Below are positions 2,584-31,506 of a stretch of 64,000 bases of DNA, in pieces. The notes beneath the pieces are model-generated. The model searched no databases and was not told where the DNA came from. It saw only the letters and a program-made list of their open reading frames with translations. Position 1 is the first letter of the stretch. Every line of letters begins with the position of its first letter. A program made the translations under genes and the position numbers. This DNA is from Amphiscolops sp. MND2022 (lineage: Eukaryota), in NCBI GenBank assembly GCA_964187785.1, contig OZ076409.1, forward strand, positions 10,480,001-10,544,000. Reading direction: 5' to 3'.

Positions 2584-2668
2584 GATGTGTCAATCGAACG
2601 ACCGCGCAGTGATTTGAATCGACGTACCGATGACGTCCAATCCGTCAACCGATAAGCTATGCGGTCAC

Positions 2669-6751: not shown

Positions 6752-7181
6752 CTAGAAGGAACTCGTTCAAATCCAGAGCAAAATATTCGTGAGCTTCAGA
6801 GCTGATTAGAAACATAGGTCCATGAATCCCCTGGATTGAACTTTGACTGTCGTTGAAACCATCATTACCCAACATTGCTTCTTTGAGGAACTGAATTGTG
6901 TCATTGAATTCGGAATTATTGTCTTTCAAAATTTTTCGACCATCCAAAAAGTTATCGTTACAAATCTTGATATTAACAGGAATGTCATAATATCTTTTGT
7001 CAATATAAGTTGTTGCTGTGACCGGGTTCTGTTCGTTGTAATCTTCAAAGACCCCGGTGAATAATTAAAGAAGCAACAGGGAGCATATGAACCAAACAAT
7101 GAAACGAACAAAGTTTGTTAATCGACAAAATTCGAAGTGCTGTATATATGGAAATGTGAAGCATGCCGAGGATAAAGACAT
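6752..7181 (-). pseudogene. DEG/ENaC-family paralog, exon 1 with premature stop
   Basis: 430-nt copy of exon 58547-58118 with the same ATG context and a retained GT donor. TAT(Y) is replaced by TAA in TM1 (CTT CTT TAA TTA TTC). Upstream flank to about 7760 also resembles 58550-59520. Exons 2-3 are not in the window. Confidence 0.85.
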
Positions 7182-9786: not shown

Positions 9787-9986
9787 NNNNNNNNNNNNNN
9801 NNNNNNNNNNNNNNNNNNNNNNNNNNNNNNNNNNNNNNNNNNNNNNNNNNNNNNNNNNNNNNNNNNNNNNNNNNNNNNNNNNNNNNNNNNNNNNNNNNNN
9901 NNNNNNNNNNNNNNNNNNNNNNNNNNNNNNNNNNNNNNNNNNNNNNNNNNNNNNNNNNNNNNNNNNNNNNNNNNNNNNNNNNNNNN
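9787..9986. other. Assembly gap (200 N)
   Basis: Run of N. Confidence 1.
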
Positions 9987-10089
9987 CTCTGCTTTTTCAT
10001 ATCTTGAAATCTAAAAGTTCGCCCACCAGATGAGGTCGTGTATACTTTTCTCTTCCCTATTTTAGTTGACTTTGCTTTCCCGCCAAAAA

Positions 10090-10323
10090 TCAGTGACTTT
10101 TCTAGCAGGCCATGGCGAAATTTACCACCGACATGGGTGATCCACATGGCGACCCGCAGACCAGCCCACAACACGCCGATCCACATGGACTTGGGGCCTT
10201 TTTAAAGAAAACCATGCAAGAAGTCCATGTGGATCGACGTGTTGTGGGCTGGTCTGCGCATCGCTATGTGGACCACCCATGTGGGTGGCCATTTTCGCCA
10301 TGGCTTGCTAGAAAAGCCACTGA
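10090..10323. repeat. Long inverted repeat (about 100-bp arms, 28-nt loop), foldback/MITE-like
   Basis: 10090-10192 (TCAGTGACTTTTCTAGC...CCACATGGACTT) is the imperfect reverse complement of 10221-10323 (AAGTCCATGTGG...GCTAGAAAAGCCACTGA). Confidence 0.85.
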
Positions 10324-10596
10324 AAAAAGCAAGGATCGAAAGGAGCATTGCGGAGTGGCAATGTTACCTTGGAAAAGTCACACTTCTCAAGGCAACACCT
10401 CAGATGTTTGGGAACGCTTCGACCAGGGGCCACTCTGAAACTCCAGGCAGATCCTGTGGAAAGTCCTCACAGCCATGCGTGGCATAAGTCATGCTGTCGC
10501 GCCAATCCCCAAGCGCCCAATACTCACAAATTAATTTAGCGAGGCGCCGCCTCCTTAAAAGAGCCTTACAAAATGTACATGCCTCAAGGAGAATGA

Positions 10597-10765
10597 AAAG
10601 GGACAAGCCAAAAGGGGCAAATGGAGCCAAATTCACAGTTGTTTTTGCGCAGATATTTGCTGATATCGGCATTTAGAGGTGCAGATTTTCACAGACAACC
10701 ACAGGAAGCCAGAAAACCACCGAAATGCGCAGAAGAGACCTGTTTGTCCCATATTGGCTTATTTT
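10597..10765. mobile_element. MITE-like element, degenerate copy
   Basis: AAAGGGACAAGCC...TGTTTGTCCC, homologous to 11640-11852. Confidence 0.55.
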
Positions 10766-10845
10766 GCCCATTATCACTCATCCGGGAATCATCCCTAGTA
10801 TGGTGATTGTGTGTTTTCAGCTACAGCCCACCCAGCCTTGACTCA

Positions 10846-11193
10846 GCCCCCCCACCACCGCTTCCCCTTCCCAGGGAGTCGATTTTGAGTCGTTTTTTTT
10901 TTTGCGGTCGAAGTCAGATCGATTGAGAGTCGATTTTGAGTTGTTTTTTGAGTCGCAACTTGAAATCAGCTCTCCATGGAACCGAATCAGAAGTCCATTT
11001 CTTGTCCTCTGGAGAGTCGATTCTGTCCTCTGCTGTGAATTCATTGAGAATTGTGGCTGTCCATTTTCACGTTTTTGGACGACCGCTTCTCCGACTGACC
11101 GCTTCAGCGTCCTTTTGGCGCACCCCCATCATCGAAAATGACTGCCCGAGAAAAGACTCAAAATCGACTTGTCGGGAGGGGGTGGTGGGGGGA
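10846..11193. mobile_element. MITE-like element with terminal inverted repeats
   Basis: CCCCCCACCACC...GAGTCGATTTTGAGTC at the left and GACTCAAAATCGACT...GGTGGTGGGGGG at the right; internal GAGTCGATT repeats. Confidence 0.6.
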
Positions 11194-11639
11194 TGAGTTG
11201 GGGGGCTTGTAGCTGTGAAACAAATTAACAACCCTAATGCCCATGCAAGGCAAAGAGTAGCCTGAAGAGATTCTCTGAGCTTGCCCAGTGAGAGAGATCT
11301 GAAGCGCCTCAACTAAGAGCTGCTTTATTGGGGAAGGGGATGAGGACAGCAACTTTTCACTTTTCAGAGTCCGGCGTTTCACTGCATCGCCCGGACCTCT
11401 TCACTGAATTGCCTTTCCTGTCGAAATCCTTACCAAACCGCCCATTCACTGAATTGCCCCCCTTTTCACTGAAAAGCCCTTTTTTCACTGAAAAGTGTTT
11501 CGTCGCGTCCCCTTCCCAAAAATCGGCTCAAATAAACCCGAAATTCCTCAATAAATGAAAAATTTCCCCCAAAAGTGCCCACCCCCAATTCAAAATAACA
11601 AAAAATAGTTTATACTAAAAAATCCTCAAAGCTCAGGGA

Positions 11640-11852
11640 AAAGGGACAAACTAAAAGGGACAAACCGAGCCAAATTCGCAGTTTTATACAAATTTTCGCA
11701 GATTTTTGGTACTTTTTGCTTTTCCTAGAATTTGCAGCATTGGGAGGCGCAGATTTCGCAGAAAATTGCAGGAAACCGAAGATTTCGCAGAAAATTGCAG
11801 GAAACCTAAGCTTTTCGCAGAAACCCGTTTGTCCCATTTAGTTTGTCCCTCT
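11640..11852. mobile_element. MITE-like element (GGGACAAACT...AGTTTGTCCC TIR)
   Basis: Double GGGACAAAC at the left, double GTTTGTCCC at the right; internal tandem GATTTCGCAGAAAATTGCAGGAAACC x2. Confidence 0.65.
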
Positions 11853-12001
11853 TAATTCCTCCCTCAAACCCTATACATATACATTGTTCAGAGATAATCA
11901 ATCAATGGTTTTGTTCGAAAAGTCTCCGTTGTTGAAAGGTAAAAGATTTTTTCTTTGCAGAATTCATCCAAGTCCAAATATTTCCTGTTTTCTTGCATAA
12001 A

Positions 12002-13352
12002 ATGACAACAAGAAGCCAGAAGAGAAAAACAGTAGCTGAGTTAGTCTCAGGAGAGTTTGAGAAGTCAGGAGTTGAGAATAATCAGCCTAAAAGTCTTGTT
12101 GCTGGTCCTAGCAAATCACGTACAATTTCACCTGAAAACTTAGACGAGGTAAAAACACCTTTGACATGACGAAAAACCTAGCACAAAACCAAAAAGAAAA
12201 GCTAATAATCATAGCACCTATGGCCAAAAAGTCCTCTGATTACCAAGCTTTACAGACTTCTATTTTTGGCCAACAACTCCGGTGAATAGTGGCAACATGG
12301 TGACAGGAGTCCTCAATGACTCCACAAATCAACCCACCAAGAAGCCAAAACAGCAACATTCACACAGCGAAGAAAATAAACTCCGTCTTGCAACATCAAG
12401 ACGACTGTTTGCACACCATCCGGAAATATTCCAGCCATCCAACATGCTCCTAATGCCGAAAGCACTCACTGCTTCGTTTTTGACGATAAATCTGGAAAAT
12501 TTGAACTATTTCATGACTTTTTCCGAAATAACATAAAAATGCACCCACACCTCAAGAAACACAAAAAATCAATTCTTTCCACTCGCGCCTCAGAGGAAAC
12601 GCGCTCCAAGTGTATTGTAACCTAGACGACACCAAGAAGGACAACATAGAGGACGTATTAACGGCATTTAAACGCCGCTTTGGGATTTCCAGTCAGTCCT
12701 CTGCCATAATTTCTAATCCTTTGCCATGACGAAAACCAGATGTGAGTGGGACGTACTGCATTTCGACCCCACAAAACAAATACTACATGAATTTCTCGAT
12801 GTACTTCAAAAAACTGCAAAGGAAGTTTTGGGCTCGGAAGCTCAAAAAGTCATTGCCAAAAGATCTATGCAAAAATGCCTGATCGCGTCAAAAGGATCCT
12901 TAATTAAGCGTGCGTACCTCAAAGACAAACTCTTCAATGACATCGTCCTGCATCTAGAGCGAGAGTTGCAACTAAACGGCCTCGGAGCGCCCGATGAAAC
13001 TACGCTAATCCCTCTGAACTCAGTCGACACAATTGACCTGGAGGAGAAAAAAGAAAAACAACATCGCGGTTACTGTTTCCACTGTGGCAGGTACGGTCAC
13101 TATAAAGTACAGTGCCGGAAATCCAAAAAAGAACGCTACTACGAAACCAAAACGAAAAACGTCGCAACAAACCAAATGGACGCTCAAAAACCAAAATGCG
13201 GAATGTGCGGCAACTTGCAGAAAACTGAGAACTGCTGGGAAGGAGCATATGCAGCAAACAACCCAAGACGCAAGAAACGCGAATTCACCATCCCCACTAA
13301 CAAAATTAGTGAACAACTTTTCCCCACTCCTTCAACTCAGTCAAAAAACTAA
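12002..13352 (+). pseudogene. gag: gag of element A (frameshifted; starts within the LTR)
   Basis: MTTRSQKRKTVAELVSGEFE from 12002. Later segments resemble B gag (IVLHLERELQLNGL vs IVAHLERELELNAL). Zinc knuckle CFHCGRYGHYKVQC; ends SKN*. Confidence 0.8.
12298..12309 (+). promoter_or_regulatory. Primer binding site of element A
   Basis: TGGTGACAGGAG directly after the LTR-terminal CA; the same 12-mer follows B's 5' LTR. Cognate tRNA not assigned. Confidence 0.85.
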
Positions 13353-16300
13353 AATTGCCACGCCTACGTTTCAGGGAAAAAGCAAATGCGTGGGCGTACA
13401 CCATCAAGGATTCCCCAAATCGATTAGAAAAAGACTTCATGACTGAGTGTAATGGAGAACCAACGCAAGACTGGCAACCACGTTGCAATGTTGGCATAAT
13501 CCAACGCCACAACGTCCGACACCAAGACGACTCAAAACCTCTTCCTCGCTGGATAACGGAGTCACCGGACAACTACGCTACACTCAAACGACCTTTACCA
13601 GAATCGAAAACAGAAAATATCTACGTCTATGACACGGAATATAAATGCGATCCATGGGACGAACCGACATTCTATGATGCAATTACACTATCCTTTAACA
13701 TACAGGCTCCACACCCACAGAATCAATCAGAAGCAGCACCGAAATTCCCCACCTCTGTCACCCATTTCGAAAATGTTAGAACCAACAGCGACAGTACCCG
13801 TCATTGTAACGTCTACACCAATAAACGCAAAGGAGAAAATTCCACCGGAGACAAGACACTGTGGTCACAAATGCTACGGAAAAGAACAGTCGACACCTCC
13901 TCTCCCCCACCACCACAAACTGCACCTGCCACAGAAGCACCCGACAGCAACGAAGATACAACGGAATGGCCACCACCCTTACACTTAGACGTCATCAAAG
14001 AATTCCTTCAACATGACAAAGACGACAACTACATTCCGTTGATGTCAGCAATTGCCCTCAAAAAAAGACGAGAATGCTCTTCTTACCCGTCGAATTCAAT
14101 GTCAATATAGACGCGTTAGTAGACTCAGGTGCGTACATCAATGCCATCAGTGAAAGGGATGCTGAAAAAATCAAGCACAGTGCAAGCCAGTGCATCTTCA
14201 ATAATGCACTTCTTCCCCCTTTCAAAGTTCAGTACGCCAATGCAGAACTCGAACAAACCCTAGCAACGTACTTAATGCGGTTTGAATTTGGCTATTACAC
14301 CTTTGAAGAAACGTTCATTATAATGACCCAGACATCCTTTTCAATAATCGGATTGGCGTTCCTACGGAAAGACGCCGCTATAATCGCTACAGCCCAAGGA
14401 AAAATAGACTTCCCAAAGATTCAAATCACGATGGCACTCACGGACGAAATGCAAAATGTAACCCGAAAACGATTACCTCAAAAATTAAAGCAAGTCCACC
14501 ATACCCGCACAGTCCACTAGTATCATACACGCGAGAAAGTACAGCCCCTACCACAGTTTGACGAGTGTGCGAAACGCATTGTATCACCGGCAGTAACAAC
14601 AGCCAGAGACAGTTGAGTAGCCATCAAAATCGCCAATACATCGCACTTTCCATACACAATAAATCACAACACCAAGCTAGCCGAATAGGCAGCTCCTGAA
14701 ACCCGAAAAAAAACGAAATTTATCCGAACAGTGGCCATAGCTGCGCTAAACCTACTAAAAGACCATGACGACGTTGTCATGTATATCAATGCACTAAAGC
14801 AAGTCGAACGCCCTGACGATAACGAAGAAATTTTCTGATTCCAGACACCAGAAAACACTGGCAACGAAGACGAACACTCCCCGATACAAACACGAATCCT
14901 TAAGGAACTACGACAACTATCCGAACGTGAAAAACTTTACACATCAGACGATGAAGAATCCCGAGACAAGTTCCTTTCATTGTTTAAAAGACCTGATTCA
15001 CTAATCAAAGGAGAGGACAGTGAAAACCTAGAAGCTACAATAGTAGAAATCAATGAAATCTTTGCTCGACATAGAAATGACTTTGGCATGAACACGCAAT
15101 TCAAAGTCAGTCTAACACCAAAAGTCTGTCTACACGCAGAGTCTACCAGTACCAATCAACCTGAAAGAAGACCCGACGGTAGAACTGGCTCTCATGCACA
15201 GGTACGGAATCATCACGTTGCTACTCTTCTCAAAATATTCAAGCCCAATCTCCGCCCAACGGAAACCCAACGGCAAATTGAGACTACTGGTGGATCTGCG
15301 CAAAATCAACGCACTCAACGCCGATGACTACATCAACAACAACTATTTTATCAGCACCATCTCAGATGCCGCACAACACCTGGCTGGGAAAAAAACTGTT
15401 CTGCACACTCGACTGCTCCCAAGCCTAGCACTGCCTCCAAATGGCAGACCAAAGGTCAGTTGAAGTATTTGCTTTTAACTTTGCTAGTAGGACGTTCGCC
15501 TACCGTAGACTAGTCCAAGGACTCAGCAGGTCAATGTGTGCCTTCTCGAGCTTCATGCGTGAATACCTGGACACAGTAATCAAAGCCGACCAGTGCGCGC
15601 AATGCGTTGACGACAATGAGATCGCCGCAAATACCTTGGAGCAGTTAATCAAAAACATCAGGGCAGTCTTCAAGTGTATCAAAACAGCCGGTCTGAAACT
15701 TACAACCGAAAAATGCCATTTAGGAGTAAAACATTTAGAATTCCTCGACAGAACTATCATCCCAAACGGAGTAGCGCCGCAAGATCAGCAGGCCAAAACT
15801 TTTGTCCTGAAGTCCGTTTCCCAAAATCAAAGAAGCAAGTACAAAAACACATCGGCGGTGTGAACTACTACCGAAACTACATACCACGACTCTCAGAAAA
15901 ACTCATCGATATGGATGAACTTTTAAAAGCTGATGCCAAAATTACCGTCTCAGAAGAACTCGTTGACAGTTTCAAAGAAACCAACGCCAGTCTAGCGGGA
16001 GCCTGCGGACTTTCCTTAAGACAGCCCAAAGCTGGAAAACAAAACGTCCTTATGACGGATGCCAGCTTCCGTGCATTAGGTTATGGGCTCATGATAGAGA
16101 AAAACGGTGAACGGAAACTCCTGTTGAAAAAAAACAATTGCGCTAGTAGCGTTCGGATCCCGCGTGTTCTGACCATCCCAACTGAAGATGTCAAAATACT
16201 GTGAGGAATATCTGGCTATAAATCAAGCTTTCCTAGATTGTAGTCACATTTTATGGGAAAGGACCATACCTACGTTAGTGCTGACAGACAATCAATCAGT

Positions 16301-18240
16301 AACAAAATTCTTCCAAACAAAAACCACGCCGCCTGCATTATGGAAAGCCTGCGACTATGTACTACAATTCAAGTTCGGTATCATGCACGTAGCAGGCTCC
16401 CAAAACACAGCATCGGATTTCTAGTCCAGACTTGAGATTACCGCAAAAGAAATGAACCAACTGAAACTACGAGACGATATACTAACGTCGCCAATAAAAG
16501 TCAAACTTCAGTCGACAGATGTCGCTGATGAAGAACATCTTTTCTTCCTATCAGACGAAGAAGAATCAGAACGAAGAATCTTCGCCAGAAAAGCGCTTAG
16601 CAAATGACGCGCCATAGACGGCCATGATAAAGAACTGTCAACCAAAGTAACCGATGTGTTCAAAATACCACTCAACTCCGTTGTCTATACCTTCGGGGCG
16701 ATCAAAGAAAATGCACGCATCAGAAACGAACAAGATGCAGACCTTCTTCTCAAAGCGCTAAAATTATGAATACGACAAAAACCTCCTCAAAACCGCTCCA
16801 CGACGAAGATCTCTCCTACGGCATGAAGACAGAATCATCACGAACGACGGAGTTATCTTGCGGAAATATTGCGGAGAAGATGGGACAGTCAACCACCACC
16901 AATTAATAATACTGAAACACATAGTCCCGGAACTACAGTCTACTCTGCATGGAAAAACAAAAAACACCCTGGAATCACGAAGATGATACAAGAGTGCAGA
17001 ACAAAATACTACTATCCGGAGCTATCACGAAAGTCCAGGTCACGAGCTGCCCAGACTGCATAGCAAAGAAACGAATTGATACGAGACAGATCCGTTCAAA
17101 AATGCCAAGCAATACAAATTCACCATGGGACCAGATGATTGCCTAGATGTTGACATCCTACCAAACCTAACATCATCAAATGGATACCAACACATCAAAA
17201 CACTGATGGATGTCTTCTCACGTTATTTTATTGCCTACCCCACATAAAATATAACTGCCGAAACTGATGCCCGAAGTATCAACGACGTAATGACAAGATA
17301 TTGCTGTCTACCAACAGTTATATTGACCGATAAATGATCACAAATCAGATCATGAGTGGTCAACCAGATAGCACAGACACCCGACATAGGAATAAACCAC
17401 GCATCAACTAATCATGATCAGAAAACGGCATCAAAGAAAGAACGCATGGGTCCCTGTAAACTTCACTGAAAATATCAACGGGAGAACGACGCTCGATGTG
17501 GCACACATACTTACAGATAGCAGTCATGAATTACAACACAAGCTACCACGAAAGGTTAGGCTGCGAACCTACAACTGTGTTCCACGGACGCATTCCGTAT
17601 AACATCCTAGACATCAAACTTAGACTCAAAACAGAATGGAAGAAAGACGCCAATGAAGACCTAACGGAAGAAATACAGAAACAGATAGCAGAAATACATC
17701 AGTCCGCCAAGAGACAACCTGATGCAGTCCTCTACACACGAACCCTCCATAAAATTAGCCTAAATCTATTTGCGCCCAATCAGCAAAAACCTGACGTAAC
17801 AGTCAGAAGGGAAATCTATCTTTCAGATCCAGAGCTTAAAACAACCCATAATGATTGGTACGCGCATGCTTGGGAAACCGAATTCGGAGACGTTTTGTTC
17901 GGAACACCTACGAAAAACTCGTCAAAAGAAGGCAACGATCACGGAAATCACAGACAAGACAGAAGAAGACGCAGTTGCAAATGAAAATGAAGTGGTTAAA
18001 TCAACCACAGTTGAAAATTCCGGAGAGGATAAAACATCCTCCGACAATGTTACGCCATTTTTTCTGGATGTCAGTGATAATGCCTACATTTTGACTCCAC
18101 CGCTTATGGGAAGCCTTCACAAAACACCGGAATTACCGCCTATAGTTGTTGGTTATAACACTAGAAAAGATACAACTTACGCCCTAAACCAAGACCTAAC
18201 GGTAATAATGATTTTCGAATGCTTGACTCAGTTACTACTG
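13343..18240 (+). pseudogene. pol: pol of element A (PR, dUTPase-like insert, RT, RNase H, integrase; many lesions)
   Basis: ALVDSGA (PR); RKPNGKLRLLVDLRKIN and QCVDD (RT); LMTDASF (RH); KHPGITKM...CPDC and NYNTSYH (IN). The end coordinate is approximate. Confidence 0.9.
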
Positions 18241-18256
18241 AGATTGAGCGTCAAAC

Positions 18257-21200
18257 TCAATCTGCAACAACTAAGATCAAATGAGTCATCCGGATACTTA
18301 ACACAGGTTGTACCAATAAAGAGACAACACAGTTAAAATACACGTAGCAGATGCCGACGGGTCTGGAACTCAAAATCCTGAAAAAGATACTTTGTAACAT
18401 CGGCAAGATCAACTGGAGATTGCTTAGATTGCACATGATATCTGCGCTTTTCAACAACAAACCTGATATACAGCTATAGACTCGTCCAATGACACGACCC
18501 CACGGTCAACTAACATCCGACAAAACTCTGTAAACAACTCAAAAGCACCACTGTTGTCGACTTCCAGCGTCAATTCAGGGCGAAATCTATAGAGGCGCTT
18601 CGAGATAATAGACCTTGTACATGAGATCTCCAGCAACAACACGATCAAACGGAATTCAGAAAAATCGCTCGTCTTGATTCGGACAACTCCTTCCCGAATT
18701 CAAAGTTAGCAAGGAACATTCCGATGGGGGTTTCAGGAAATGCTCAAATCTTTGCAGCAGACATATACTCGTCCCAATCGGGTATGCCAGGAAGACAATC
18801 TATATCCCGAGTCTTTAACAAGAGGAAAAACACGAAGTTACAAAACTTTCCATGTCCGCGGAAAGCATAGTCCACACGTCCTTGCTGCAACTTCCAAACG
18901 TCCTTGCTGCAGCTTCCACACGTCCTTGATGCAGCTTCCACACGTCCTTGCTGCAGGTTTACAAAATTGATATTGACTGAAACACAGCAACCCATCACCA
19001 TAGAGGAAAGTACAATAAATTGCCAATCACTTGCAAACTCTACCGAACAGTCGAACACAAGACGTATTGCAACTAGATGAACAACAATCACAAATGCAAG
19101 CAGAATCAGATCATACTTACAAGTATCGAGCATCAATCTGAGCATCCCGAAACGATACGTGACCATTTTGTCTGCAACCAGAAGCCAATCAGTCCCTTGC
19201 AACTAAAACAACACAAAACATACAGTCAACAACAAATCAGGCAAGCGATGACAATATGCATCTTACTACACAAATACCAAACCAAATTGAAACTCAAAGC
19301 ACACCAGCCCTATCAGCAGAATCTTTCGCCTCTGGGCCATATGGTAATCAAGTCTGTCAGGAGCTCCCGCATATCTGTAAAATTCACGTAGCCTTGACGT
19401 ACACATCGCCGGGGAACTGGTCTACTTTCCACTCCTCTGTCCACTCCTCATACAAAGAACTTTTTAATCAATGCACAGTATACTCCATTACCATAGTCAG
19501 TTCAACAATCCTGAAAACATCTTCATATGCACGACGAATGCACTGCGAGAACACATCACCTCTAAACACTTGATAGGCCACAAACAACGCTCATCCGTAC
19601 GACCGTCTCCTAACATCCGCAGCAGAGACGGACTTCCTCAAAGAACAATTACGGGCAACTGCCTGTCCTCAAGCTAAAAATGACTCGAGCCAGTCTAGAC
19701 TCCAAAAAAGACTACGAAACAGCGCTCCACTTCGGAATCTTTCCCATACTGTACGCTGTATTCACGAAAAACCAGGATCCCTTTCACACCCGTGGAGCAA
19801 GACCTTGACACAACTGCGACTGGAACACATAACCAGAGCTGCGATGCAACTGACCAAAGGCTACATAACTCACCAAAAAAACAACAAGAACAAAAAGCCA
19901 CGAAGAACCTGAACTGACCACTGTCTCTGAACGACTCCACTGTAGTGAGTACACAGGGTTCCGCTTACCCAAAGATGCGAGAAAATAGCCCGCCCCAATA
20001 GCGTCGCACAAGCGAAAAGTTTCCTCCTCTTTGTAGCAACTCACAGAGACAGGAAACCAGGGTCATGAAGGGCACCGTTGACCCTACTTTTGAGTTCTTG
20101 GGCGGAAGATCCTCAGGAAAAGAAAACATTTCACCCAAATCGACAAACGGCCGAGAAGAAAAATCCAATCGTTTACTATTCATGAGCTCCATGGGTTCCA
20201 TCAGTTCAATATGCACAAGTAGCCCCATGTGCACCCTCTACACGACATCCCGTAGCCAGTCCCCTTTAGATCCAAAATGGCAAACAATCTTAGAAGAACC
20301 ATGGGTGCCAATAGCAACGTCGCGAAAACATAGGCGACAGTAGAAGTACTTGGATTGCCCATACTTGGCACCAGTCACAAAATCTTTGAAGATTCGATTC
20401 ACACTAAGCATCGGTTTATGCAAGAGACTACGCTTAGTGATTTTCCACACCTTGTTACGCCTCCGGAAATGGTCGTCCGTCTTCTCTGCAAGTTCATTAA
20501 ACCCTACAGCACAAACAAGAAACCTAACAAACATTTAACGTACTGCCGAAATGCCACAATCACAACGAGGACATAACGCATCAATTTGACAGTCAAAAGA
20601 ACACAAAGAAGCAATGCCCAGAACAAGAAAATACAAAACAAAAGAAATCTTACAAGTTCATGAATACTGACGAAATACTCATCCGCCTGAAACGTTGCAC
20701 AGCGCGTTCTTCAACCCCAGTTGCCAGTTGGCGGCCAAACATTGCCACCTCAGGAGAAAGCACCCCCGACTTCTACAGCCCTGCAGCTGCTACATCTTCC
20801 TGATTACTACAACCACCATGGATGAAGTCCTGCAATGTCCGCTGGATACCCTCACGTTGACGTCTCAAAGGAGTTTCCAACGACACGACAATCTTACGGA
20901 GAGGGAACTTCGGAAGCCCTAAATAAGCACAAACACGATCACAAACATACTACCAAAAAAGCAAACCCCAACACAATCGTACTCCCGCCCTAATTAAACC
21001 AATTACTGACCTGACTCCAGAACAACAGGGGGATCATTCTCACCTCTTTGAGACTCGCTATCAGCATCATCGGGAGAAACAGCCGAAGACGGAACAACAG
21101 TGGAACAAGAGGGAGCGGTAGATGAGAATAACTCAGACCCGGCGCCACTAAGAGCAGAAACCAACGCTTCGTTGATGGAGAAAGAAGATTGAGGAACCAA

Positions 21201-21620
21201 TACAGTAGAAATGGGAGGCAACACAGTAGACGAACTAACAGACAACACTGTCGTTGTGGAAACTACTCCCGTAGTAGCCACGGAAAAACTCCGGCAGAAA
21301 TGAAGGTAGTGCCAGGTTGAGTTAATGAAAGTCACGATTTGGATTCAGACGCGTCAGAAAATTAGGTAAGACTACAAAGGCTGATCACCAGAACAATAGT
21401 CCAATTGCCCATGGAAGTCAGAACGATTTCACCAACCTGAAGCGGAATGTGAAACAGCTAGTTCCAAGACAACCTCGTCATCATCAGTGTAACAATATCT
21501 GGTGTAACAATATCTGGTCCAGAGCCACTGGCAAACCCTAAGAATGAAGCAGGAGTGAGACGAGGAAATTCCCCATCCATAATGACATACTGGACAAATG
21601 GATAACAGCAATCTGAAAAT
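18257..21620 (-). pseudogene. Antisense multi-exon BED-finger/hAT-transposase-like cargo gene of element A
   Basis: FVTG...YFYCRLC...HF motif; QWSRSETV|GTCAGT intron 19918-19820; 82-nt exon 19202-19121; C-terminal LYRFRPEL...RGVV. All are homologous to the antisense gene in B. Confidence 0.75.
18871..18955. repeat. 22-bp tandem repeat (about 4 copies)
   Basis: (TTCCACACGTCCTTGCTGCAGC)n variants. Confidence 0.9.
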
Positions 21621-21918
21621 GAAAAATAAACATCAAGAAAGTCAAAATCGAGAAAGAAATGACTTTTTGAAATAATGACGTCACGTGGACGTAATTCTTT
21701 TAAGGGAAAATTGATGACGTCATAACGACGTAGCTGAAGAAGAAAAAAAAGATTAAAACCAAACCTTTTCCCTTCATATTTCTGCCAATCACAGCGCAGA
21801 CGGAAGCAAAACGCTTTCAAAAAATTAAAGCGGACCGAAACAAAAGAAGGAACTCAACGAAGGAAAAAGAAAACTCAAACGTCCATTTGTCGTCCAATTT
21901 TCTAGAAAACAGCTTGAC

Positions 21919-22686
21919 ATGTTTAAATCCTCCATAAAGCTAAATGCTCATTTGCCCTCATCACAAATGAACAATATTGCGCTCGTATTCGACATCTCCG
22001 CGGATGAAGAGAACGATCGCTACAGTACCCCCATAAAAACGCTACCAGTAAAAATGGTGGGAAGAATGGATCTGAGCGACTCTTCCGTAGAAATTTGGAG
22101 AAGTAATGATGTAGAGCTGAATTTGTCTTCGTCCTCTGCATTAACAATCGAGTCACTACATTCTCCGAGAAGAGTGAGCTTCGCTCCAATAAGAAACAAC
22201 GAAGGAGAAACGTTCATAGTGGAACAGCCGCCTAGGGACACAGATGAAAACTTCTATGAAGAACCGGACTCGCCACGTCAAGTACCTCCATTGCAACCCG
22301 CGCCGATCCTAAGAGATATCACTATACTGCCTCCAGCAAACTACGTCCCCCTTACGAAAATAAACATACTTAACGACCTCAGTGAACCCCCCAGAAGGAA
22401 GATAGAAGAAACATGGGGGCTAAACCGGAACAACGAAGAATACAACGCGACAGCTGGCCGTAGAAGCAGTTTCAAGTCAGCCAAGCTACAGAGGAATCTG
22501 AAACAGAACATAACGGTGCTTAAAGAAATATCTCACTGCTCTGGACTGCCAGCCTTTGTACGAGAGGGCACCTGTCGCGACAAATTCCTGGTCGTTGTTT
22601 CTCATGTTTCTCTGGCATACCGGGTTTCGGGAGGGGACGTGGACATGGATACATCAAGTATCTGTAAACTAATTCAATTTAACTAA
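21919..22686 (+). CDS. Extra sense ORF of element A (255 aa, acidic/Pro-rich, unknown function), overlapping the 3' LTR
   Basis: Open 255-codon frame in the same position as B's ORF 47112-47947; crosses the PPT and LTR start at 22573. Confidence 0.6.
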   Translation: MFKSSIKLNAHLPSSQMNNIALVFDISADEENDRYSTPIKTLPVKMVGRMDLSDSSVEIWRSNDVELNLSSSSALTIESLHSPRRVSFAPIRNNEGETFIVEQPPRDTDENFYEEPDSPRQVPPLQPAPILRDITILPPANYVPLTKINILNDLSEPPRRKIEETWGLNRNNEEYNATAGRRSSFKSAKLQRNLKQNITVLKEISHCSGLPAFVREGTCRDKFLVVVSHVSLAYRVSGGDVDMDTSSICKLIQFN

Positions 22687-24419
22687 TTCTACTTACAGTA
22701 AAGCTAAGTCTTTGTAGATAATCTTTCTGAATGCGAAATCCAACGTAAGCGTTACGGAACAACTTTGGAAATGATTTAGCTCTAGCTAAAATTTCCGGTT
22801 TAAGCTTTTACTGGTGATCACTTTCATTTCAGTCTATTATTTGAAATCCACATGCTGATCTAAACACCAAAACAGAGACAAATTACGTTACATAACATTA
22901 GCTCATTTTTCCATCCTGAAAGGAAAACATAAACGCTAAAGTTTAACTCAGTAATCCTAATGGAATTCAAACAATCTAAAATGGAAAACACACAAAACAG
23001 TATAGGGGTTATTTCCCAACTTCAAAATAGTTGTCAAGGTTCACTTAAATTACAGTCAAGTAAGTTAAGAGAATAATCACAACGCTACGACAGCGTCACC
23101 CAGAAGAACTAGTAACTGGTGTTTCTAATTTTACGGCCCAATAACGTCGCTCCTTTAGTTGAGATATTTGCGCTTGCTCCAAAAGGCGTAATTTTTTTTG
23201 ACGTCATTAGCTGAGAGAATGAAAATGGCTGCCTACGCGCTCCGCTTTCACTCTGCGAACTGCCACTCAGGTATAGCGACTCTTAATACGTACGGAGCAG
23301 TTACGTAGCGGATTCTAAAACTGTAACGACGAAATGAATTTTTGAATCAGGTTTGAACTGATTTCTTGAAGAAACGACGCATTAAGGGAAATTTAGAAAT
23401 AGGAGTTTATATAGTGAACGCTGTACTGTAAAGAAAGATTAAAACCGCAAACTCAGCAATTAAGGTTTATTTTTGTAATCAATTTCATACTCAATTGGTA
23501 ATGGTATAATTACGCTCATCTCACGTTGCAAACTCCATTTTTTGAAGTATAATAAATATCAAAACATCATAGTTCTAGTATAGTATACGTTTCTTATAGA
23601 AACAAAAGGTTTCCGTTATTCGCCACTAATAATTTGGAAGATGTACTGTTTCGTCATAAGAACGAGTTGTTTCTGTTGCTATCATGTCGTGTCTGAAGTT
23701 ATGTCAATTGGTTTCCGTTGCTATTGCGCTGTGATCTAGACTTGTACAAAATTCATAGCACAACAAGTAAATTGGGTAATTTGTTGATGTATGAATGTGT
23801 TTTGAAGTATTTCTTCATGTTTTCGACAATAGATAGTTTGTGTTATTCTAGCATCTTTTGTTCCATCCATATTTCATACTCTGGATGTTTGATCTCAAAA
23901 GTATTTATTCCGTTCCATCCGCGTCATCATTTTTGAGTGTCAAACTTTTGCCTTGAGATTCAAAATTCCCAATTTGGAGAATGACTAAGTGATCACGCCG
24001 GCGTATCTTCGTTGAGGAAATTATTGAGCGAACCTTATTATTGCCGCCATTTCAAGACTAAACAGGAAATCTGCTAGCATGAACAAAAATGATATCAACA
24101 AGTGTTACGGAAAACTAGTGGAACTAGAAATTTCGATACCTAACTTTATAACGTGGGACTGAAATGATTTGGGAAATTGAGTATTTTTAGTGAACAAATC
24201 TGATTCTGATGATATTTAGGATTTTTTAGATTGAGGAACAAATGATGCTAAGAAAGTATATATATGTTGATTGCTTAGAGTTAATCGTTCAATTGTTTTG
24301 TTCCAATAATAGCCGTTGTTGAAACTTAAAACGTATTTTCTTTTAAGAGTTCATCCAATTCCAAAGAAGTCTTGTTTTCTTACATTAAAAGACAGCAAGA
24401 AGCCAGAAGAGAAAAACAG

Positions 24420-25980
24420 TGTCACAGTCCGCGCCCGGACTGGATTGAATTAAAAGCAAACTAAAACTAATATAGGTCACCGCTTCGCCAATACGATTGA
24501 ATTTGCGTCGCGACTACGCTACGTCACAGCTATGGCAGCTAGCTAGAATTTCATTCCATATTGTGACGTCAGCATGTCGTCTAACTTGGCAGCAAGTCAG
24601 AAGTTCATTCCAAAATGTGACGTCAGCATCTCGTCTAACTTGGCAACTAGCTGGAAAGTATTCCAAATCAGACGACGATATGACGTCACAGCTATGGCAG
24701 CTAGCTAATTTTCATTCCAAATTTACGTCCACTATAACTGCGGACTAAGTCTAATACTAATACGTACGTCCACGTTACGTCGCAAATCCATCAAAATAGC
24801 TGTTTTAATCCATCCAAAACACCACATTGACGTCCACGCGACGTCCACTATAATGGCGGACTAAGTGTAATACCAAATTTACGTCCACTCTACGTCCCAA
24901 TTTTATAAAATTAGGCGTTTTAGTCTGTATTAAATTTAAAAGAAGCTTTATTTTACTACGGTAAAACTAATCGAAGCTAGAATATGAATCAACGTCAACA
25001 CTACGTCGCAATTTAACTAACCAAACCAAATTTTGAATCTACGTCAGTATTGCGTCGACTAAGATTCAATTCGAACGGAACATGGTATTTAAGCCAGGAT
25101 TTTTCAGATTTACTTAAAATAACAGTGTTTGAATACGATTTACATTGAAAAGTCACAGTTTATATTCAATTTGTGTTAATAAAGTGAAGTCCAAGCTGGA
25201 TTTTAAATGTACGTTTTGACTACCTAATTTCATAAGTTCATATGCTGTTTGACGATGTCACGTCGTCTTTTGTTGTTGCTCAAAGGTGTTGCTCCTAACT
25301 TTAATCAGATAAATATTTATCAATTGTTGGAATATATAATTGTTTAGCCTCATGTAAATCAGTCACTCTCTTAGCATCACCAAATTGCCTAAATCAAGAT
25401 AATTAGTCATAATTTTCTTCAAGTGGAAATTCAAAATCAGGTATTAGTTGTTCACGTCAGCGTCATCTCCGCGTCGGTTTCTTACGAACCAAAGCAGAAA
25501 AACGGGGAAGTATTTCCGCTTTGACAGACTGAAGTAATATCTACTTCCTGCTTGGGAGGAAACAAAAGGACGCCGGAATGAAATGATATGATCATGATTG
25601 ATGTCTAATACTAGATTAGAATTGCCGTGTCTTAAAAATTGACGAAATGCTGACGAAGATCAAAGTTTTACCGCAAAATTACAGGAAGTGACTAATATCT
25701 CGATGGAAATGAAAGTACGCGAGTATGAACAGATGATGCTAGGAGGGTATATATAGCTTGTACCTGTAAACTTTATAATTCAATTTCTGATTCAATATGC
25801 TGTCTTGTATCAAATTCTACTTTGTTTTGTTAAAACAATTACTCTGCAAACTCCAATTCAAAATTGATAAATCCGAAAATCTTTTCATCAAGAGAAGCTA
25901 GAAAAGAAGAATGTCCTTCAAAAAAGCAACAAAAAAAATCAGAAATATACAGAACAACGACCCTAACAGGAGTCGTAACA
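24420..25980 (+). mobile_element. Solo LTR (1561 bp) of another family, inserted in A's 3' LTR
   Basis: TGTCACAG...GTCGTAACA flanked by the 5-bp TSD AACAG (24415-24419, 25981-25985). Removing it restores the sequence seen at about 12020-12045. Confidence 0.9.
24520..24900. repeat. ACGT-rich internal repeats of the solo LTR
   Basis: ACGTCACAGCTATGGCAGCTAGCTA x2; TTCATTCCA...GTGACGTCAGCAT.TCGTCTAACTTGGCA x2; ACGTCCACTATAA...GCGGACTAAGT x2. Confidence 0.85.
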
Positions 25981-28042
25981 AACAGTAACTGAGTTAGTCT
26001 CACGAAAGTTTGAGAATTCAGGAGTTGAGAATAATCAGCCTAAAAGTCTTGTTGCTGGTCCCAGCAAATCACGTATAATTCCACCTGAAAACTTAGACGA
26101 GGTAAAAACTTCTTTGACATGACAAAAGTCCTAGCAGTAAACCAAAAGTAAATGCTAAAAATCATAGCACCTATGACTATAAAGCACTCTGACTACCATT
26201 CCTGAGAGAATTTTGATTTTGAATCTGAAAACATCTCCGTAGCTCGAACGTCTACCCCTGTAAAAACAAAAGCGACTACTTCCAAAACAACCCCGGTGAA
26301 TAGTCGTAACAAAGGTTAGACAGTTTGAACAAGGCTGATATTGACAATATAGTGTGAAGACAAAAATTTAAGCTAGAAATTCTCCCATTTTTCTAACAGA
26401 AAGGTTTTCGGAACTTTGCTCACGCAGTTTCGACTTGTCTAATTGACAAATTTTAGAATAATGATTTTTGTGTGAAATCATTTGGGACTCACGTCCTTAC
26501 AAGTTCCGGGCGTCTAAGGGTTAAAATTTGCACTTTTGCGGTATGTACGCATACTTTCTTTGTGAAACAATACTCATGTAGATGTACTTTTTTTCCTTAT
26601 TCATGTGGTTTTTGGATAGTTATGCTAGTAACCAGAGAATCAAGAATTCGAGAAATTTGGTGACCGATTTTATAAGCTACTGAAACTTTGTATTTGATAG
26701 CTTCTTGCGGGTTACTGGTAACTATTTCAGACCGCAGAGTGGAAAGTATAACGATAAAACGAAGTTAAAACGTGATTAAGGAATGTTTGCATTTCATTTC
26801 CTTCAGTAAATTAAAAGCAGCACCAAAAAAAGAAGTTGTTTTTTAATGAGAAAACTAATGATGGCGATTTTGGGGTTCAGGCGAAATACGTTAAGAGCGC
26901 CATATGATTTACATTGGAAACTCCATAATCGAAAACAAACTAAATGGAATTGGGTTGATGAAAGTTTCATGAAGACAACTGAGTCGATATGACGCTTGAA
27001 TGTTAGCTAAAAACTAAATAGGAAAGTGCACAATTCAGTGTTTTGTTTAATATCATAACTGAGCCAAATAAAAAGAGTCTTTGTAAAATTGCTTTCTTAT
27101 AGGGGTTTGTAAATATAGCATGTGCGTTACATGAAATACAGAACAGAGATTGAGAGTTTGTACTCCTTTCAGAGGATCATCGGTGAAGCAATTAGTTGAG
27201 TGAAATATACATTTATGGAGCTATATGACTTGGCTTTGTTTTAAGAGTTTGGCTTTGTTTGAACGATGTTTGACTTGTAATCAAACGCAAACGGTCTGAA
27301 GTATGTGAAAAACATGTTATGGAAAGCCTTCATGTTTTTAGTTTCCAATACATGCATAGCATGCTTCTACACTTTCAGTGTCCTCATACTTGTTGTAGTT
27401 GACAATCACATCCGTCAGGTTTAAAAAATGCAAACAAATAGCTAGATAGTCTAATAGTGAACCAGCTCATATAATAAACTGGGTTATTAATTTTTCAATC
27501 TTTCAGAAATCAAAAAATTGAACCGAGTAAAAATTCATTAGTATGCTGTTAGGAACGTAATGTATGTGAGCCGATGCGACGTTCAGATAGAGCAAAAAAA
27601 CAGTCAGATACGTTGAAGCTGAATAGAATCTCCGATCAAGCTATACAGTAAGCTATTGCGACTCCATCGTTTGAAAGGGGGACTTTCAAATCCAAATATT
27701 TTAAAAACTGTCTTGATAACAAACAATATAAAGATCAATGAATCAAATTAAAATTCATCAAAAACATCTTTCGATTCCCATAAGTAAGTAGCTCGATCAG
27801 CAGAGTAAAAAATGAACAGCATTATATTCCGAAAATTTCGAAGCGCGTCGTTTTTAGTCTGCGCTTTTATTAATAAAAGAGCCCGACTATTACAGTCACT
27901 CGTTTTTTTTTCTTTTTTTAAAGACAGACTCGAAACGACGAACGTTAACGTTCAACTTAAGGAAAGTAAATACCAGGGAAACGCATCTAAGTTATTCCAA
28001 GGGGTCTCCTTTGGTTTTTTACTTTTTAAAGGTAACCTATAA

Positions 28043-28649: not shown

Positions 28650-30376
28650 TGTCGCAGGCGGCCGCCTGCGATGGCAACGTCTATACAATTGACCATTCGA
28701 AGCCAATTGCCCTACCTGGGACACTCCCATTATAAAACTAAAACTTTCAAACATTCAGTATTATTTTGAATATGTAATGTTGAGTGATGAATTGTTTTAT
28801 TATTCTTTATGTAAAATACATTTGACAGCAAGCTATACTGACAGGCGGAAAGGAAACGTGTTCAAATGTTTGCCTGTCCAGTATAGCTAGCTAAGCCGTC
28901 CATGGTCAATTGGCAATTCAGAGTGCAGTTTATAACAGCCATCTTATTACTTATTACGTAACTGCGCTAGTAGCTATTTAGAATGGACCAATACGGCCAA
29001 TTAACTTTGCCGGCCTTATTATGCTTTGAAGCTATACTTGAATAATATTCAGTAATTACAAATAGGACGAAAGCGGCTATGTGACATAGCTGTCCCTAAT
29101 CACTGTACTAATTGTCTTGGTACTATACAGTAAATAAGGCCTATCACGGCCAATTGACGCAATAAGCATTCAAATGCTGTATACCTATTATATGAAATTG
29201 GTGTCTCAATTAATTACTGATTGAAAGACACAAGTAACCCCCCATGCAATGACCAAACATGTATATTGCTAACATGTAGTGTTGCTTTCCGTGTTATGAT
29301 TGGGTTTGAATTAGAAAACCCTAACGGGCAATAGCGGTATGGGGTCTTCTTGTACATGTTCAAATGTAATGTTGCTCTGCGCTGTTAAAAGGAACTATAG
29401 GTCCTTTCCAGCTACTCATCAGTTGTGTTATACATGAATTCTATCTACATGTAAAAGTGTTTGCATATAGTATGCTGTATATGAATATCATTACCTATTC
29501 GTCACATGGCCTAATAGGGCACTTTGGTCTACCCGCCTTTATATGACCTTTGTGACGTAACGATGCTATTTTTAGCAGTGACGTGTCATATTTATAACTT
29601 GTAAGGTATTTTTAGTAACATGACAGTTAAAATTATGAGTGTCATGGTAACTTGGATATAAATACGCCCAGCTTGACCCTGACACAACAATTGTCTTAAT
29701 AATACGGTTATTGTTCAGTTGCTCTTATACATATTGTACAAGATTCACTGTGAAGCCTAGTTAATTTTGTCCACAGGAACAATTCAAATATTTACTCCTG
29801 GATAATCATCTTCAATGCCCTCTACAAGGAAACAAAAGTCAAAAGCCAGGAAATTGAGAGAATTAGATATGTTGTCCGACTACTGCAACATGGACGTAAT
29901 GTTTGGTGAAGGAATTTCAAACTCAATAGAGAGAGAACTAGATAGCCTAATTAATGTCCCAGAAAGGCAGCAAGGATTTCAATCCTTTCCTAACAGAGAA
30001 AATTCATCTCAAGAGAATGAGATCAGAGACATCGATAGTAGAAATGAGCCTGTTAGAGAAAGCAGGCTAGTAGAGTCATATAACATGTTGTCTGCAGAAA
30101 TGAATGCTAGGATGTCACGTGAGATGGAAACCATGATGGACCTAATGCAATCACAGATTAGCAGGGCCATTAGTTCTGCCATAAGTGAGAAAATTATCCC
30201 AGAAATACAAAACATGGTGGAACACTTGCCTTTGAGTCAACATGGCGTTGAGCCGTGTACGTCCACAAATGAGGACGGAATTGGGAATGTATGGAAGAAC
30301 GCAAATACGAAATTTACAAAGAAGGACTCAAGGTCCGCTTGTGATCTGAGGGATCATATGGACAACACTCCTTACA
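28650..30376 (+). repeat. 5' LTR of element B (1727 bp)
   Basis: TGTCGCAGG...CTCCTTACA, highly similar to 47862-49600; TATAAATA at 29657-29664. Confidence 0.95.
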
Positions 30377-31506
30377 TGGTGACAGGAGCTAACGAACTCC
30401 AACATCCGATTCCTGAATTCCTCACAGGACGAATTCACTCTCAGCCAGACCTTCAGAGACAAGAATCCGCGCATGATACAACTCTGGATACAACTCTACC
30501 AGTGGCGGAGCCCGTTACAACTGAACAGCCACAAGACCCCATCAACCGACTGACCGATGTCCTGGTAAATCTCCAGAACAAACCACTGACAATGACAATT
30601 AGACCAGTCACTACGAACCTCATGACATTTGACGGCAAATCAGAAAAATTTGAATTGTTTGAAGGCTTATTTCATACAATGATCAAGATGCAGCCAGCCA
30701 TGACGGAACAAATGAAAATAAACCATTTTCATTCATTGCTCCGAAAAGGAGCCCTGCAAACTTTCCGAAATATAAACTCTATAAACCGTCAAACACTGGA
30801 AGACGTACTCGTCATTTTTCGTCGCAAGTACGTTAAACCCGAGTCTCAAGCCACGGCCAAACACAAGTGGCAAAGACTCATTTTTAACCCCAACACAATG
30901 AAACTACCCGACTTCCTCGAAGAACTCAACCAGGGTGCCAAAAAAGCCTTCGGGAAAAAGCATGATCGATAGCCTCTTATATGCTAAGTTACCCCCAAAC
31001 CTCAAAAAATGCATGAATATGGCCCGACTGGAAAACGGGACCTACGAGGAGATTGTGGCACATTTGGAAAGAGAGCTTGAATTAAACGCCTTAGAAGAAT
31101 CTGACGGTCTACCCATAGCCACAATGGCGTCATCGTCAGGCAAAACGAAAAACCTATAATCCACTGGCATTGATTCCAACCAAAATAACAAATGCTCATA
31201 CTGCAAGGCGGAAGACCATTTCTAGAAAAATTGCCCAAACTGAAAAAGAAGAAGGAATTGGAGAGCAAAAATGGCAAGAAGCCTCAACGCCCAACTTATC
31301 CAGAATGTCCCACCTGCAACAAAACTAACCATCCAGCAGAGAAATGCTGGCGTGGTGCAGGTGCCCACCTTCGTCCAAAACATATTAGAAAGGACTCCAA
31401 CGATACGGAGCCCCCTCGAGACGAAGACACCCGCACTGAAAACGAAAAACCAACAACATCTACACCAGACCAATCCAACTCAAAAAAGCCTGATTCAAAA
31501 AACTAA
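29815..31506 (+). pseudogene. gag: gag of element B (frameshifted after codon about 380)
   Basis: ORFs 29815..30972, 30935..31159 and 31192..31506; TFDGKSEKF capsid-like motif; knuckle CPTCNKTNHPAEKC; ends SKN*. Confidence 0.9.
30377..30388 (+). promoter_or_regulatory. Primer binding site of element B (lies inside gag)
   Basis: TGGTGACAGGAG immediately after the LTR end. Confidence 0.9.

Follow-up and report, generated by a model that had tools for sequence, protein, structure and literature searches.

How a gene with introns comes to be carried, in antisense orientation, by two distantly related retrotransposons, and whether it is a working part of them or a chance insertion, is the question raised by a stretch of 64,000 nucleotides (nt) from Amphiscolops sp. 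MND2022 (GenBank assembly GCA_964187785.1, contig OZ076409.1, positions 10,480,001 to 10,544,000 of the forward strand). Within this stretch, referred to here as the window, two retrotransposons of the Ty3/Gypsy type with long terminal repeats (LTRs), elements A and B, each carry a homologous antisense gene between the integrase and the 3′ LTR, here called the cargo gene. An initial annotation of the window held that this gene is an ancient, selected component of the Gypsy lineage, and the comparisons described below support that proposal. They further suggest that the cargo behaves as a hypervariable cassette that has been moved between element backbones. Both copies in the window are dead, and it is intact relatives at other genomic places that carry the case for an ancient, selected gene.

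Elements A and B are classed as Ty3/Gypsy because their plus strands encode a gag-protease-reverse transcriptase (RT)-integrase array recognized by the Pfam families gag-asp_proteas, RVT_1 and Integrase_H2C2. The RVT_1 match has an E-value of 2.1e-12 in B and 1.8e-10 in A, and it is preceded by gag-asp_proteas and followed by the integrase, giving the order protease, RT, integrase; the integrase is recognized by Integrase_H2C2 (E = 9.1e-16), while the rve match is weak (E = 6e-4) and falls under the cut-off. The two elements are distant relatives, with a Kimura two-parameter (K2P) distance of 0.54 between their RT DNA sequences and, when the pol open reading frames (ORFs) of B are used as tblastn queries, amino acid identities in A of 65-74% for the RT, 32% for the protease and 32-61% for the integrase.

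The cargo genes of A and B are related at the protein level and share no detectable DNA similarity (best blastn E = 0.5, versus 6.6e-43 for the RT of the same two elements). A tblastn search with ORF2 of B finds the zinc-finger segment of A at 20387-20013 (E = 4e-7, 30% identity over 156 amino acids), and a profile of 18 C-terminal sequences, run against a six-frame translation of the window, matches A at 18279-18470 on the minus strand (E = 1.6e-7). The alignment of BED-like and C-terminal segments reported in the initial annotation is thus significant, and the exon landmarks that accompanied it were confirmed. In both elements a phase-0 intron follows the motif W-S-x-x-x-x-[VT], which in A reads QWSRSETV and ends at 19919 (intron of 99 nt) and in B reads DWSSASLT and ends at 44203 (intron of 98 nt). 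Both also possess an exon of exactly 82 nt bounded by ttttag upstream and by gtaagt (A, 19202-19121) or gtgagt (B, 43239-43158) downstream.

The cargo copy of A is a pseudogene on the minus strand (18257-21580) that was delimited by homology to three intact A-type copies, L061 to L063; its ATG lies at 21580 and its first coding exon spans 21580-21437. The zinc-finger exon (19919-20503) encodes a C-x2-C-x16-H-x5-H finger in which the last histidine is replaced here by aspartate, ends with QWSRSETV, and matches the best of its other genomic copies at 51-52% identity. Exon model and sequence reading place next the 99-nt intron (19820-19918, gtcagt...ttccag), followed by exon 2 (19309-19819), which encodes the RNase H-like part described below and is decayed, being 511 nt long versus 621 nt in intact A-type copies, with stops in all frames. 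An intron of 106 nt (19203-19308, gc...ttttag), whose donor in this copy, compared with L061, is GC, separates exon 2 from the 82-nt exon LQGTDWLL...MLDT (19121-19202), the one mapped exon of A whose frame is open. A phase-1 intron of 144 nt (18977-19120, gtaagt...tttcag) leads to the decayed last exon (18257-18976), which encodes the helical C-terminal domain and contains the profile match given above, with a weaker one at profile positions 15-54. Stops in every frame in three of the four mapped exons, an exon 2 about 110 nt short and the one GC donor mark the copy as dead. The last exon also holds four copies of a 22-nt tandem repeat (approximately 18872-18958), which add 66 nt in frame relative to intact A-type copies.

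The cargo copy of B (41857-45930, minus strand) is modelled with five exons, 45930-44203, 44104-43610, 43494-43360, 43239-43158 and 43016-41857, separated by four GT-AG introns of 98, 115, 120 and 141 nt; the first of these (44202-44105) reads gtaagg...tttcag, and the 82-nt exon encodes PQSLEWAI...VRD. This copy has 1200 codons without a frameshift and five in-frame stops, and is likewise a pseudogene. Each of the two window copies has lost one zinc ligand.

Relatives were sought across the 1.07-Gb genome of the host, an animal to judge by a DEG/ENaC channel ORF in the window; the candidate counts given here refer to this genome. The search with ORF2 of B returned 7681 first-look candidates, and all 132 that were scored have E-values of 2.1e-93 or lower; the search with the zinc-finger exon of A returned 2570 candidates, the best of which other than the query is 52% identical. 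In a public protein library, 1326 representatives of 50%-identity clusters matched at E ≤ 0.001, those returned being single-exon ORFs. Every relative for which the database searches displayed a name and source was an unnamed single-exon fragment from European Nucleotide Archive (ENA) records, a search for longer, spliced, annotated relatives gave two proteins that were both unnamed ENA records, and a cluster look-up of ten relatives gave no names. Because every relative so displayed is such a fragment, gene finders and repeat maskers probably miss or split the cargo gene. At the DNA level a 3364-nt query holding the cargo of A matches only itself over its full length among 40 scored places, and the other 39 match only within the first 357 nt of the query. 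At the first intron of the A cargo (approximately 21301-21491, minus strand) lies a stretch of 140-190 nt that recurs at many genomic sites with 79-89% identity (1283 first-look candidates, 40 scored). For the adjoining zinc-finger exon, protein identity is only about 50%, and of 29 loci with the stretch only 10 hold that exon within 1.5 kb.

Intact copies establish the gene structure. All exons are open in L061, L062 and L063, and the order in L061 is a zinc-finger exon, a phase-0 intron of 108 nt after WSRSETM, an exon 2 of 621 nt, an intron of 112 nt, an exon of 82 nt, a phase-1 intron of 146 nt and the last exon. The B-type copy L028 follows the same plan, except that its exon 2 is divided, after a conserved lysine, by a further 124-nt intron. 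Spliced models of L061 and of the B-type element e028 are open from the zinc-finger exon to the stop codon (846 and 811 amino acids, respectively), and the two proteins align with a blastp E-value of 5.8e-35 and 20% identity over 674 amino acids. When introns are mapped onto this alignment, all three of these A-type introns fall at B-type positions (columns 225/226, 436/436 and 463/463 in A-type and B-type, respectively), and the B-only intron falls at column 391; the offset of one column at the first intron stems from a single aligner gap, and in both clades a tryptophan stands seven residues before the junction. With the further 5′ introns of A-type genes, there are four to six introns per gene, three of which are common to both clades.

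The splice sites are conserved across copies. Intron 1 has GT and AG boundaries in all 30 B-type copies, where it occurs in length classes of 86, 89, 92 and 98 nt. Among 33 A-type loci examined, 14 hold the exon end, and in each of these GT follows directly; an AG acceptor is present in 10, the other four loci ending before the acceptor, and intron lengths are 78-174 nt. A GT donor follows exon 2a in 28 of 29 copies, and a spacing of exactly 82 nt between AG and GT, with an open frame, is kept in 28 of 29 B-type loci (the exception having a mutated donor) and in three of three A-type loci. Since splice sites and positions are conserved, the introns, predicted here to be spliced, are real features inherited from the common ancestor of the A-type and B-type clades.

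The position of the gene is equally constant. Protease-RT sequence was present on the opposite strand at the expected offset beyond the 3′ end of the cargo in eight of eight further copies, making 10 of 10 with A and B. Over 353 codons the ratio of nonsynonymous to synonymous substitution (dN/dS) is 0.02-0.30 in the 10 pairs for which dS could be estimated, and 27 of 29 copies have an uninterrupted frame in exon 2a. Between diverged types of the cargo, fourfold degenerate sites differ at 0.63-0.74, versus 0.73 expected for unrelated sequence, and amino acid identity is 71-80%; by these measures the gene is under purifying selection. An apparent synonymous divergence greater than random (Nei-Gojobori proportions of synonymous differences of 0.8-0.9) was dropped, as the direct count of fourfold sites shows plain saturation. 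That the gene is ancient, as the initial annotation held, is borne out by two deep clades, with RT sequences 0.43-0.55 apart, in which it occupies one position, is always antisense and shares introns.

Cargo and RT trees, whose comparison the initial annotation proposed, agree only at the deepest level. The RT separates A and three A-type elements (e061, e062 and e063) from B and five B-type elements, the K2P distances given above being those across this split, and the cargos divide in the same way. Within each clade the two parts are strongly incongruent. The five B-type elements are 0.017-0.068 apart in protease-RT and 0.26-0.49 apart in the cargo; for B and e005 it is the cargo that is closer (0.098, versus 0.165 in pol). 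Among A-type elements, the RT sequences of e061 and e062 lie 0.080 apart and their cargos 0.541, the corresponding values for e062 and e063 being 0.063 and 0.075. Maximum-likelihood trees of cargo and pol conflict with full support. In approximately unbiased (AU) tests the pol data reject a clade of e028 and e013 (p = 1.9e-70), and the cargo data reject clades of e028 with e027 (p = 2.3e-6) and of e005 with e010 (p = 8.6e-7). Incongruence of this kind might have indicated independent captures; as the cargos are homologous, share introns and occupy one site, it points instead to exchange of the cassette between related elements.

The physical counterpart of this conflict can be seen in e028 and e027, each contiguous over 12.2 kb. 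Over 7 kb of flanking sequence their identity is about 98% (40 differing sites among 1871 towards the LTR and 97 among 5110 towards pol), whereas their cargo units differ at 1659 of 4957 aligned sites (33.5%). The edges of the diverged block are sharp, the left one lying about 1 kb upstream of the ATG and the right one about 120 nt past the stop codon, and neither inverted nor direct terminal repeats of more than 9 nt were found at them. The cargo unit is, on this evidence, a hypervariable cassette whose types have diverged to synonymous saturation, yet are each under purifying selection, within near-identical backbones. Because the trees conflict and nearly identical flanks enclose so diverged a block with sharp edges, the gene is read as a cassette moved by recombination, and the simplest reading is that old cassette types moved between backbones through recombination in the homologous flanks.

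The protein encoded by intact copies has about 1100-1200 amino acids and appears to represent an undescribed family with a zinc finger and a predicted RNase H-like domain. From the N-terminus it consists of a disordered acidic region, a basic stretch, a CCHH finger, an alpha/beta domain and a helical tail of about 350 residues. The finger, preceded by W-x3-F, has the spacing C-x2-C-x16-H-x5-H in both clades, which is BED-like. The basic stretch before it resembles PPRKRRKL in B-type copies and looks like a putative nuclear-import signal. Pfam searches with the cargo exons at E ≤ 10 gave only chance-level rows and neither TRP28 (PF04195) nor zf-BED; the best row for the zinc-finger exon (five sequences) was zf-C2H2_ZN292 (E = 0.028). 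At E ≤ 0.05 no family matched 146 C-terminal homologues, and the 17 members of the C-terminal alignment likewise lacked zf-BED and Dimer_Tnp_hAT. A search of PDB sequences with the C-terminal profile returned only a chance-level row (E = 0.43).

For exon 2, an AlphaFold2 (AF2) model based on 64 sequences, with a mean predicted local distance difference test score (pLDDT) of 66, has the order b1-b2-b3-a1-b4-a2-b5, which is an RNase H-like topology, and all its structural neighbours are RNase H-like: sugar kinases (Z up to 6.8), Pelota (5.8), integrases (5.0-5.8), the Hermes transposase (5.1-5.2) and the RNase H of Moloney murine leukemia virus (MMLV, 5.0), with no clear leader among them. At the catalytic position of strand 1, mapped by eye from the fold, there is E in B-type and Q in A-type proteins, and after strand 4 there is S/R-G rather than D; as the catalytic acid positions are not conserved between the clades, the predicted domain is probably inactive. 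A Foldseek search with the model of the C-terminal exon gave nothing meaningful (best E = 0.96). In the Protein Atlas the C-terminal exon reached a best score of 0.83, a lead only, and exon 2 had no usable match. An origin of the cargo from the element's own integrase was considered and is not supported: the hhalign probability against the integrase core of B is 0.09%, the finger is CCHH and not HHCC, and the C-terminal exon is predicted to be all-helical, albeit in a low-confidence model.

The favoured explanation, to which a probability of about 0.6 is assigned, is that the antisense, intron-bearing gene is a recombining cassette encoding a nuclear DNA-binding regulator of the Gypsy element that carries it. 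On this view an internal promoter of the cargo itself would drive transcription, the host would splice the transcript, and the resulting protein would enter the nucleus and bind DNA. The introns would persist through retrotransposition since, lying antisense in genomic RNA, they would never be recognized there as introns, as is expected from the way in which splicing and reverse transcription proceed. Recombination would place old cassette types on whichever backbone is currently successful, and the likely route, taken from retrovirology, would be template switching between co-packaged RNAs within the homologous flanks. The protein would most likely regulate the expression or replication of its own element, by analogy with the role proposed for the antisense genes of the plant elements Retand and Grande and for HBZ of human T-cell leukemia virus (HTLV), and its specificity may be tied to cis-sites within the same cassette.

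Several points weigh against this explanation. Transcription, promoter, nuclear import and DNA binding are all inferred, and since the cargo matches no Pfam family the regulatory role rests on analogy. The RNase H-like call comes from a middling model, with Z scores below 8 that may reflect a common arrangement only, and the all-helical model of the C-terminal exon is of low confidence (pLDDT 51). As regards exchange, the cassette picture draws on a single pair contiguous over 12 kb, along with six elements of the B-type and three of the A-type, the clades given to the AU test were chosen after the distances had been seen, and a clade of B and e005 is not rejected by the pol data (p = 0.17).

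A more specific version of the regulator is put forward tentatively, as a possible though unlikely refinement. The cassette may unite a sequence-specific DNA-binding regulator with its own cis-targets in one block, such that many ancient types, repeatedly re-seated by recombination on the newest successful Gypsy backbone, each assist or hold back only their own type. If true, retrotransposons would here have their own counterpart of immunity or incompatibility groups, which would account for the coexistence of saturated, diverged and selected alleles in backbones that are 98% identical.

Self-regulation would have no part if the cargo were instead a counter-defence factor that blocks silencing by the host, with cassette types maintained since each escapes or targets different host variants. 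The coexistence of many types on near-identical backbones fits this idea, and so does the rank of the cargo among the fastest-diverging parts of the element (20-22% identity between intact A-type and B-type proteins, compared with the RT identities of A and B given earlier). The low dN/dS values within types, however, show no positive selection at this coarse level, the divergence extends alike over introns, upstream region and synonymous sites, as expected of old lineages and not of fast adaptation, and no known suppressor domain was found; a counter-defence role is considered unlikely.

Doubtful, too, is the suggestion that the cargo is a disabled hAT-like DDE transposase (BED finger, RNase H core, helical insertion and dimerisation region) that was captured together with its introns and now serves DNA targeting or the choice of integration site. 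The order of CCHH finger, RNase H-like fold and long helical region agrees with it, and, by eye, genuine hAT transposases encoded in the same genome have fingers similar to its W-x3-F...C-x2-C...H-x5-H pattern. Hermes gave the highest Foldseek query TM-score (TMq, 0.33) and alignments among the longest (209-223 columns), and the Protein Atlas scored 0.81 for hAT-related clusters (Dimer_Tnp_hAT and FAM200-GTF2IRD2-like), which is below the trust level and again a lead only. Direct comparison speaks otherwise: when the cargo profiles were compared by hhalign with four genuine hAT transposases from the host genome, the probability was 0.05% for the RNase H-like part and 0.44% for the C-terminal part, and an hAT origin is not supported on this basis. 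Neither zf-BED nor Dimer_Tnp_hAT was matched in the 146 and 17 C-terminal sequences or, at E ≤ 10, in the five zinc-finger exons, and the hAT dimerisation domain PF05699, absent from the same two C-terminal sets, has 150 scored matches elsewhere in the genome. The structural match to Hermes (93-97 residues aligned, root-mean-square deviation 3.5-4.5) is tied with those to retroviral integrases, Pelota and sugar kinases, and the catalytic acid positions are not conserved.

Much less probable is that no exchange occurred and that the cargo unit, with a single history but a different rate, simply mutates much faster, for instance because sense and antisense transcripts pair into double-stranded RNA that is then edited. 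The diverged block does coincide with the presumed transcription unit and its upstream region. However, the distances and AU tests reveal conflicting topologies and not only unequal rates; the proportion of transitions to transversions at low divergence is alike in cargo (76:29) and pol (60:17 and 202:83), and 770 of the 1659 differences between e028 and e027 are transversions, a spectrum without editing-like bias and unlike that of A-to-I editing. Least credible of all is a functionless passenger, that is, a transduced host gene fragment or nested DNA transposon copied passively, since the two dead window copies and the documented transduction of host sequence by LTR elements (PMC11963269) that would accommodate it are set against purifying selection, open frames in most copies, retention in both deep clades and the lack of repeats longer than 9 nt at the cassette edges.

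Antisense extra genes at this position are already known from plant and fungal elements, and two papers describe them in plant Ty3/Gypsy elements of the Retand, Grande and RIRE2 groups, where antisense ORFs, mostly with a TRP28 domain, lie between pol and the 3′ LTR (PMC11963269, PMC7264820). These ORFs are found in most or all members of a lineage and are proposed to encode DNA-binding regulators, in the case of Grande a nuclear protein expressed from a promoter of its own (PMC11963269, PMC7264820); the proposal was made by analogy with HTLV HBZ (PMC11963269). The cargo described here resembles them in lying between pol and the 3′ LTR, in being antisense and in occurring throughout its lineage. 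It differs in its animal host, in lacking TRP28 or any other Pfam domain, and in having four to six introns, the word intron being absent from the main texts of PMC11963269 and PMC7264820. Exchange of cassettes between near-identical backbones is likewise not described for the plant ORFs in what is available of those two papers.

The fungal parallel is likewise an antisense extra gene in a Gypsy element, in a fungal rather than an animal host; the cargo studied here encodes a protein of about 1200 amino acids with a zinc finger and a predicted RNase H-like domain. That gene, brtn, is reportedly the antisense gene of Boty-like Ty3/Gypsy elements of Botrytis cinerea and is said to have been described by Zhao et al. 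in Virology in 2011. It is cited in PMC7264820. HBZ of HTLV-1 (APH-2 in HTLV-2), which is antisense near the 3′ end of the provirus and encodes a nuclear regulator, is alike in layout only, with no homology; HBZ is a small basic leucine zipper (bZIP) protein expressed from the 3′ LTR, whereas the cargo protein is large and not bZIP, and its promoter-like motifs are situated deep within the element. HBZ also has a spliced isoform, and the HTLV LTR contains repeats that resemble the cAMP response element (CRE). Retroviruses also exchange env and accessory regions between lineages by way of co-packaged RNAs. As in such modular recombination, the cargo region has a history different from that of pol, with sharp breakpoints in homologous flanks; the exchanged block here, unlike retroviral modules, is an antisense, intron-bearing gene with its own upstream region, and its types are synonymously saturated while the backbones differ by about 2%.

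For animal elements, the accessible text of PMC8220671 and PMC5408684 describes no antisense cargo, and a limited search of open-access full-text literature found no animal case, nor this protein, a transposase-like antisense cargo or cassette exchange. The animal host, the protein, the long-conserved introns and the behaviour as an exchangeable cassette appear to be new. To the plant and fungal cases the animal lineage adds thousands of copies with many intact alleles. It also provides clear comparative proof that spliceosomal introns, when antisense, can be carried along by retrotransposition over very long periods. The chief significance lies in the behaviour of the gene as an exchangeable, hypervariable block inside near-identical elements, which makes its function testable.

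The DNA upstream of the cargo contains promoter-like motifs. In A, a motif count revealed two TGACGTCA palindromes, which are CRE-like, 95-140 nt upstream of the cargo ATG (21676-21722). The window contains eight matches to TGACGTCA, versus 1.1 expected, and seven of them are in element A: at 8813 and 23199, the start of both LTRs, at 21676 and 21715, upstream of the ATG, and at 24564, 24618 and 24681, in the 3′ LTR; the eighth, at 41406, is in B. In B, an ETS-like palindrome, CACTTCCGGAAG, is located 74-85 nt upstream of the cargo ATG (46004-46015, minus strand) and is kept between cassettes that are otherwise diverged. Conserved islands inside the diverged block of e028 and e027 consist of CCAAT, AAGATGGCG, a stretch of 150 nt, and CACTTCCGGAAG about 75 nt before the ATG. 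The distance of these motifs from the LTR is about 1.9 kb in B.

B also has a sense ORF, ORF3 (47070-47947, plus strand), which is located between the 5′ end of the cargo and the 3′ LTR and is split here by a frameshift and intact, with 298 amino acids, in two other elements (for example at L074:913-1806, minus strand). ORF3 has no Pfam match, belongs to the conserved backbone outside the variable cassette, and is paired divergently with the cargo, the two genes flanking about 1.2 kb of promoter-like DNA. At the equivalent place A has a sense ORF of 285 amino acids (21829-22686, plus strand) without significant similarity to ORF3; acidic runs are present in both (ADEEND in A, SSDEEEE in B).

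The carrier elements themselves, both on the plus strand, have the following limits. Element A begins with an approximate 5′ LTR (8705-12268), which has indels relative to the 3′ copy and was recognized from direct-repeat families D10, D11, D12, D15, D18 and D20 that pair with 23092-26221, the approximate 3′ LTR, at 80-90% identity; as its LTRs are only this much alike, A is an old element. Its decayed gag-pol region (12461-18336), located by Pfam zf-CCHC, gag-asp_proteas and RVT_1 and by tblastn with the pol ORFs of B, contains the protease at about 14017-14520, the RT at about 15116-16204 and the integrase at about 16852-17984. Element B has an approximate 5′ LTR at 28650-29800 (families D1-D4 and D8, 95-99% identical to sequence from 47862 onward), the repeat extending into gag owing to tandem units downstream of B, and an approximate 3′ LTR at 47862-49010, also placed from direct repeats. 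Its gag-pol region (29806-41691), supported by ORFs and by Pfam DUF1759 (weak), RVT_1, Integrase_H2C2 and rve, is broken at about 34920-38839 by a retroelement-like insertion on the minus strand, in which by eye the integrase precedes the RT in a Copia-like order; Pfam gave no match for the four ORFs of this insertion that were tried. Downstream of B, at 47862-53900, the LTR and the start of gag recur as tandem units about 3.0 kb apart (48801 versus 51807, 96-99% identity; 50268 versus 53263, 100%), which suggests unequal recombination between elements.

A scan of 8000-53000 with Rfam matched no family. Elsewhere in the window, a direct repeat about 2.67 kb apart within 1-4192 (1-1346 versus 2669-4012, 92-97% identity) is unrelated to A and B, and a dispersed repeat pair occurs at 6722-7392 and 58088-58742 (83-94% identical). 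The sole clear piece of a host gene in the window is an exon-like ORF at 54084-54977 (minus strand) of a DEG/ENaC, or amiloride-sensitive sodium channel, gene (PF00858, E = 6.4e-21), the DEG/ENaC channels being an animal family.

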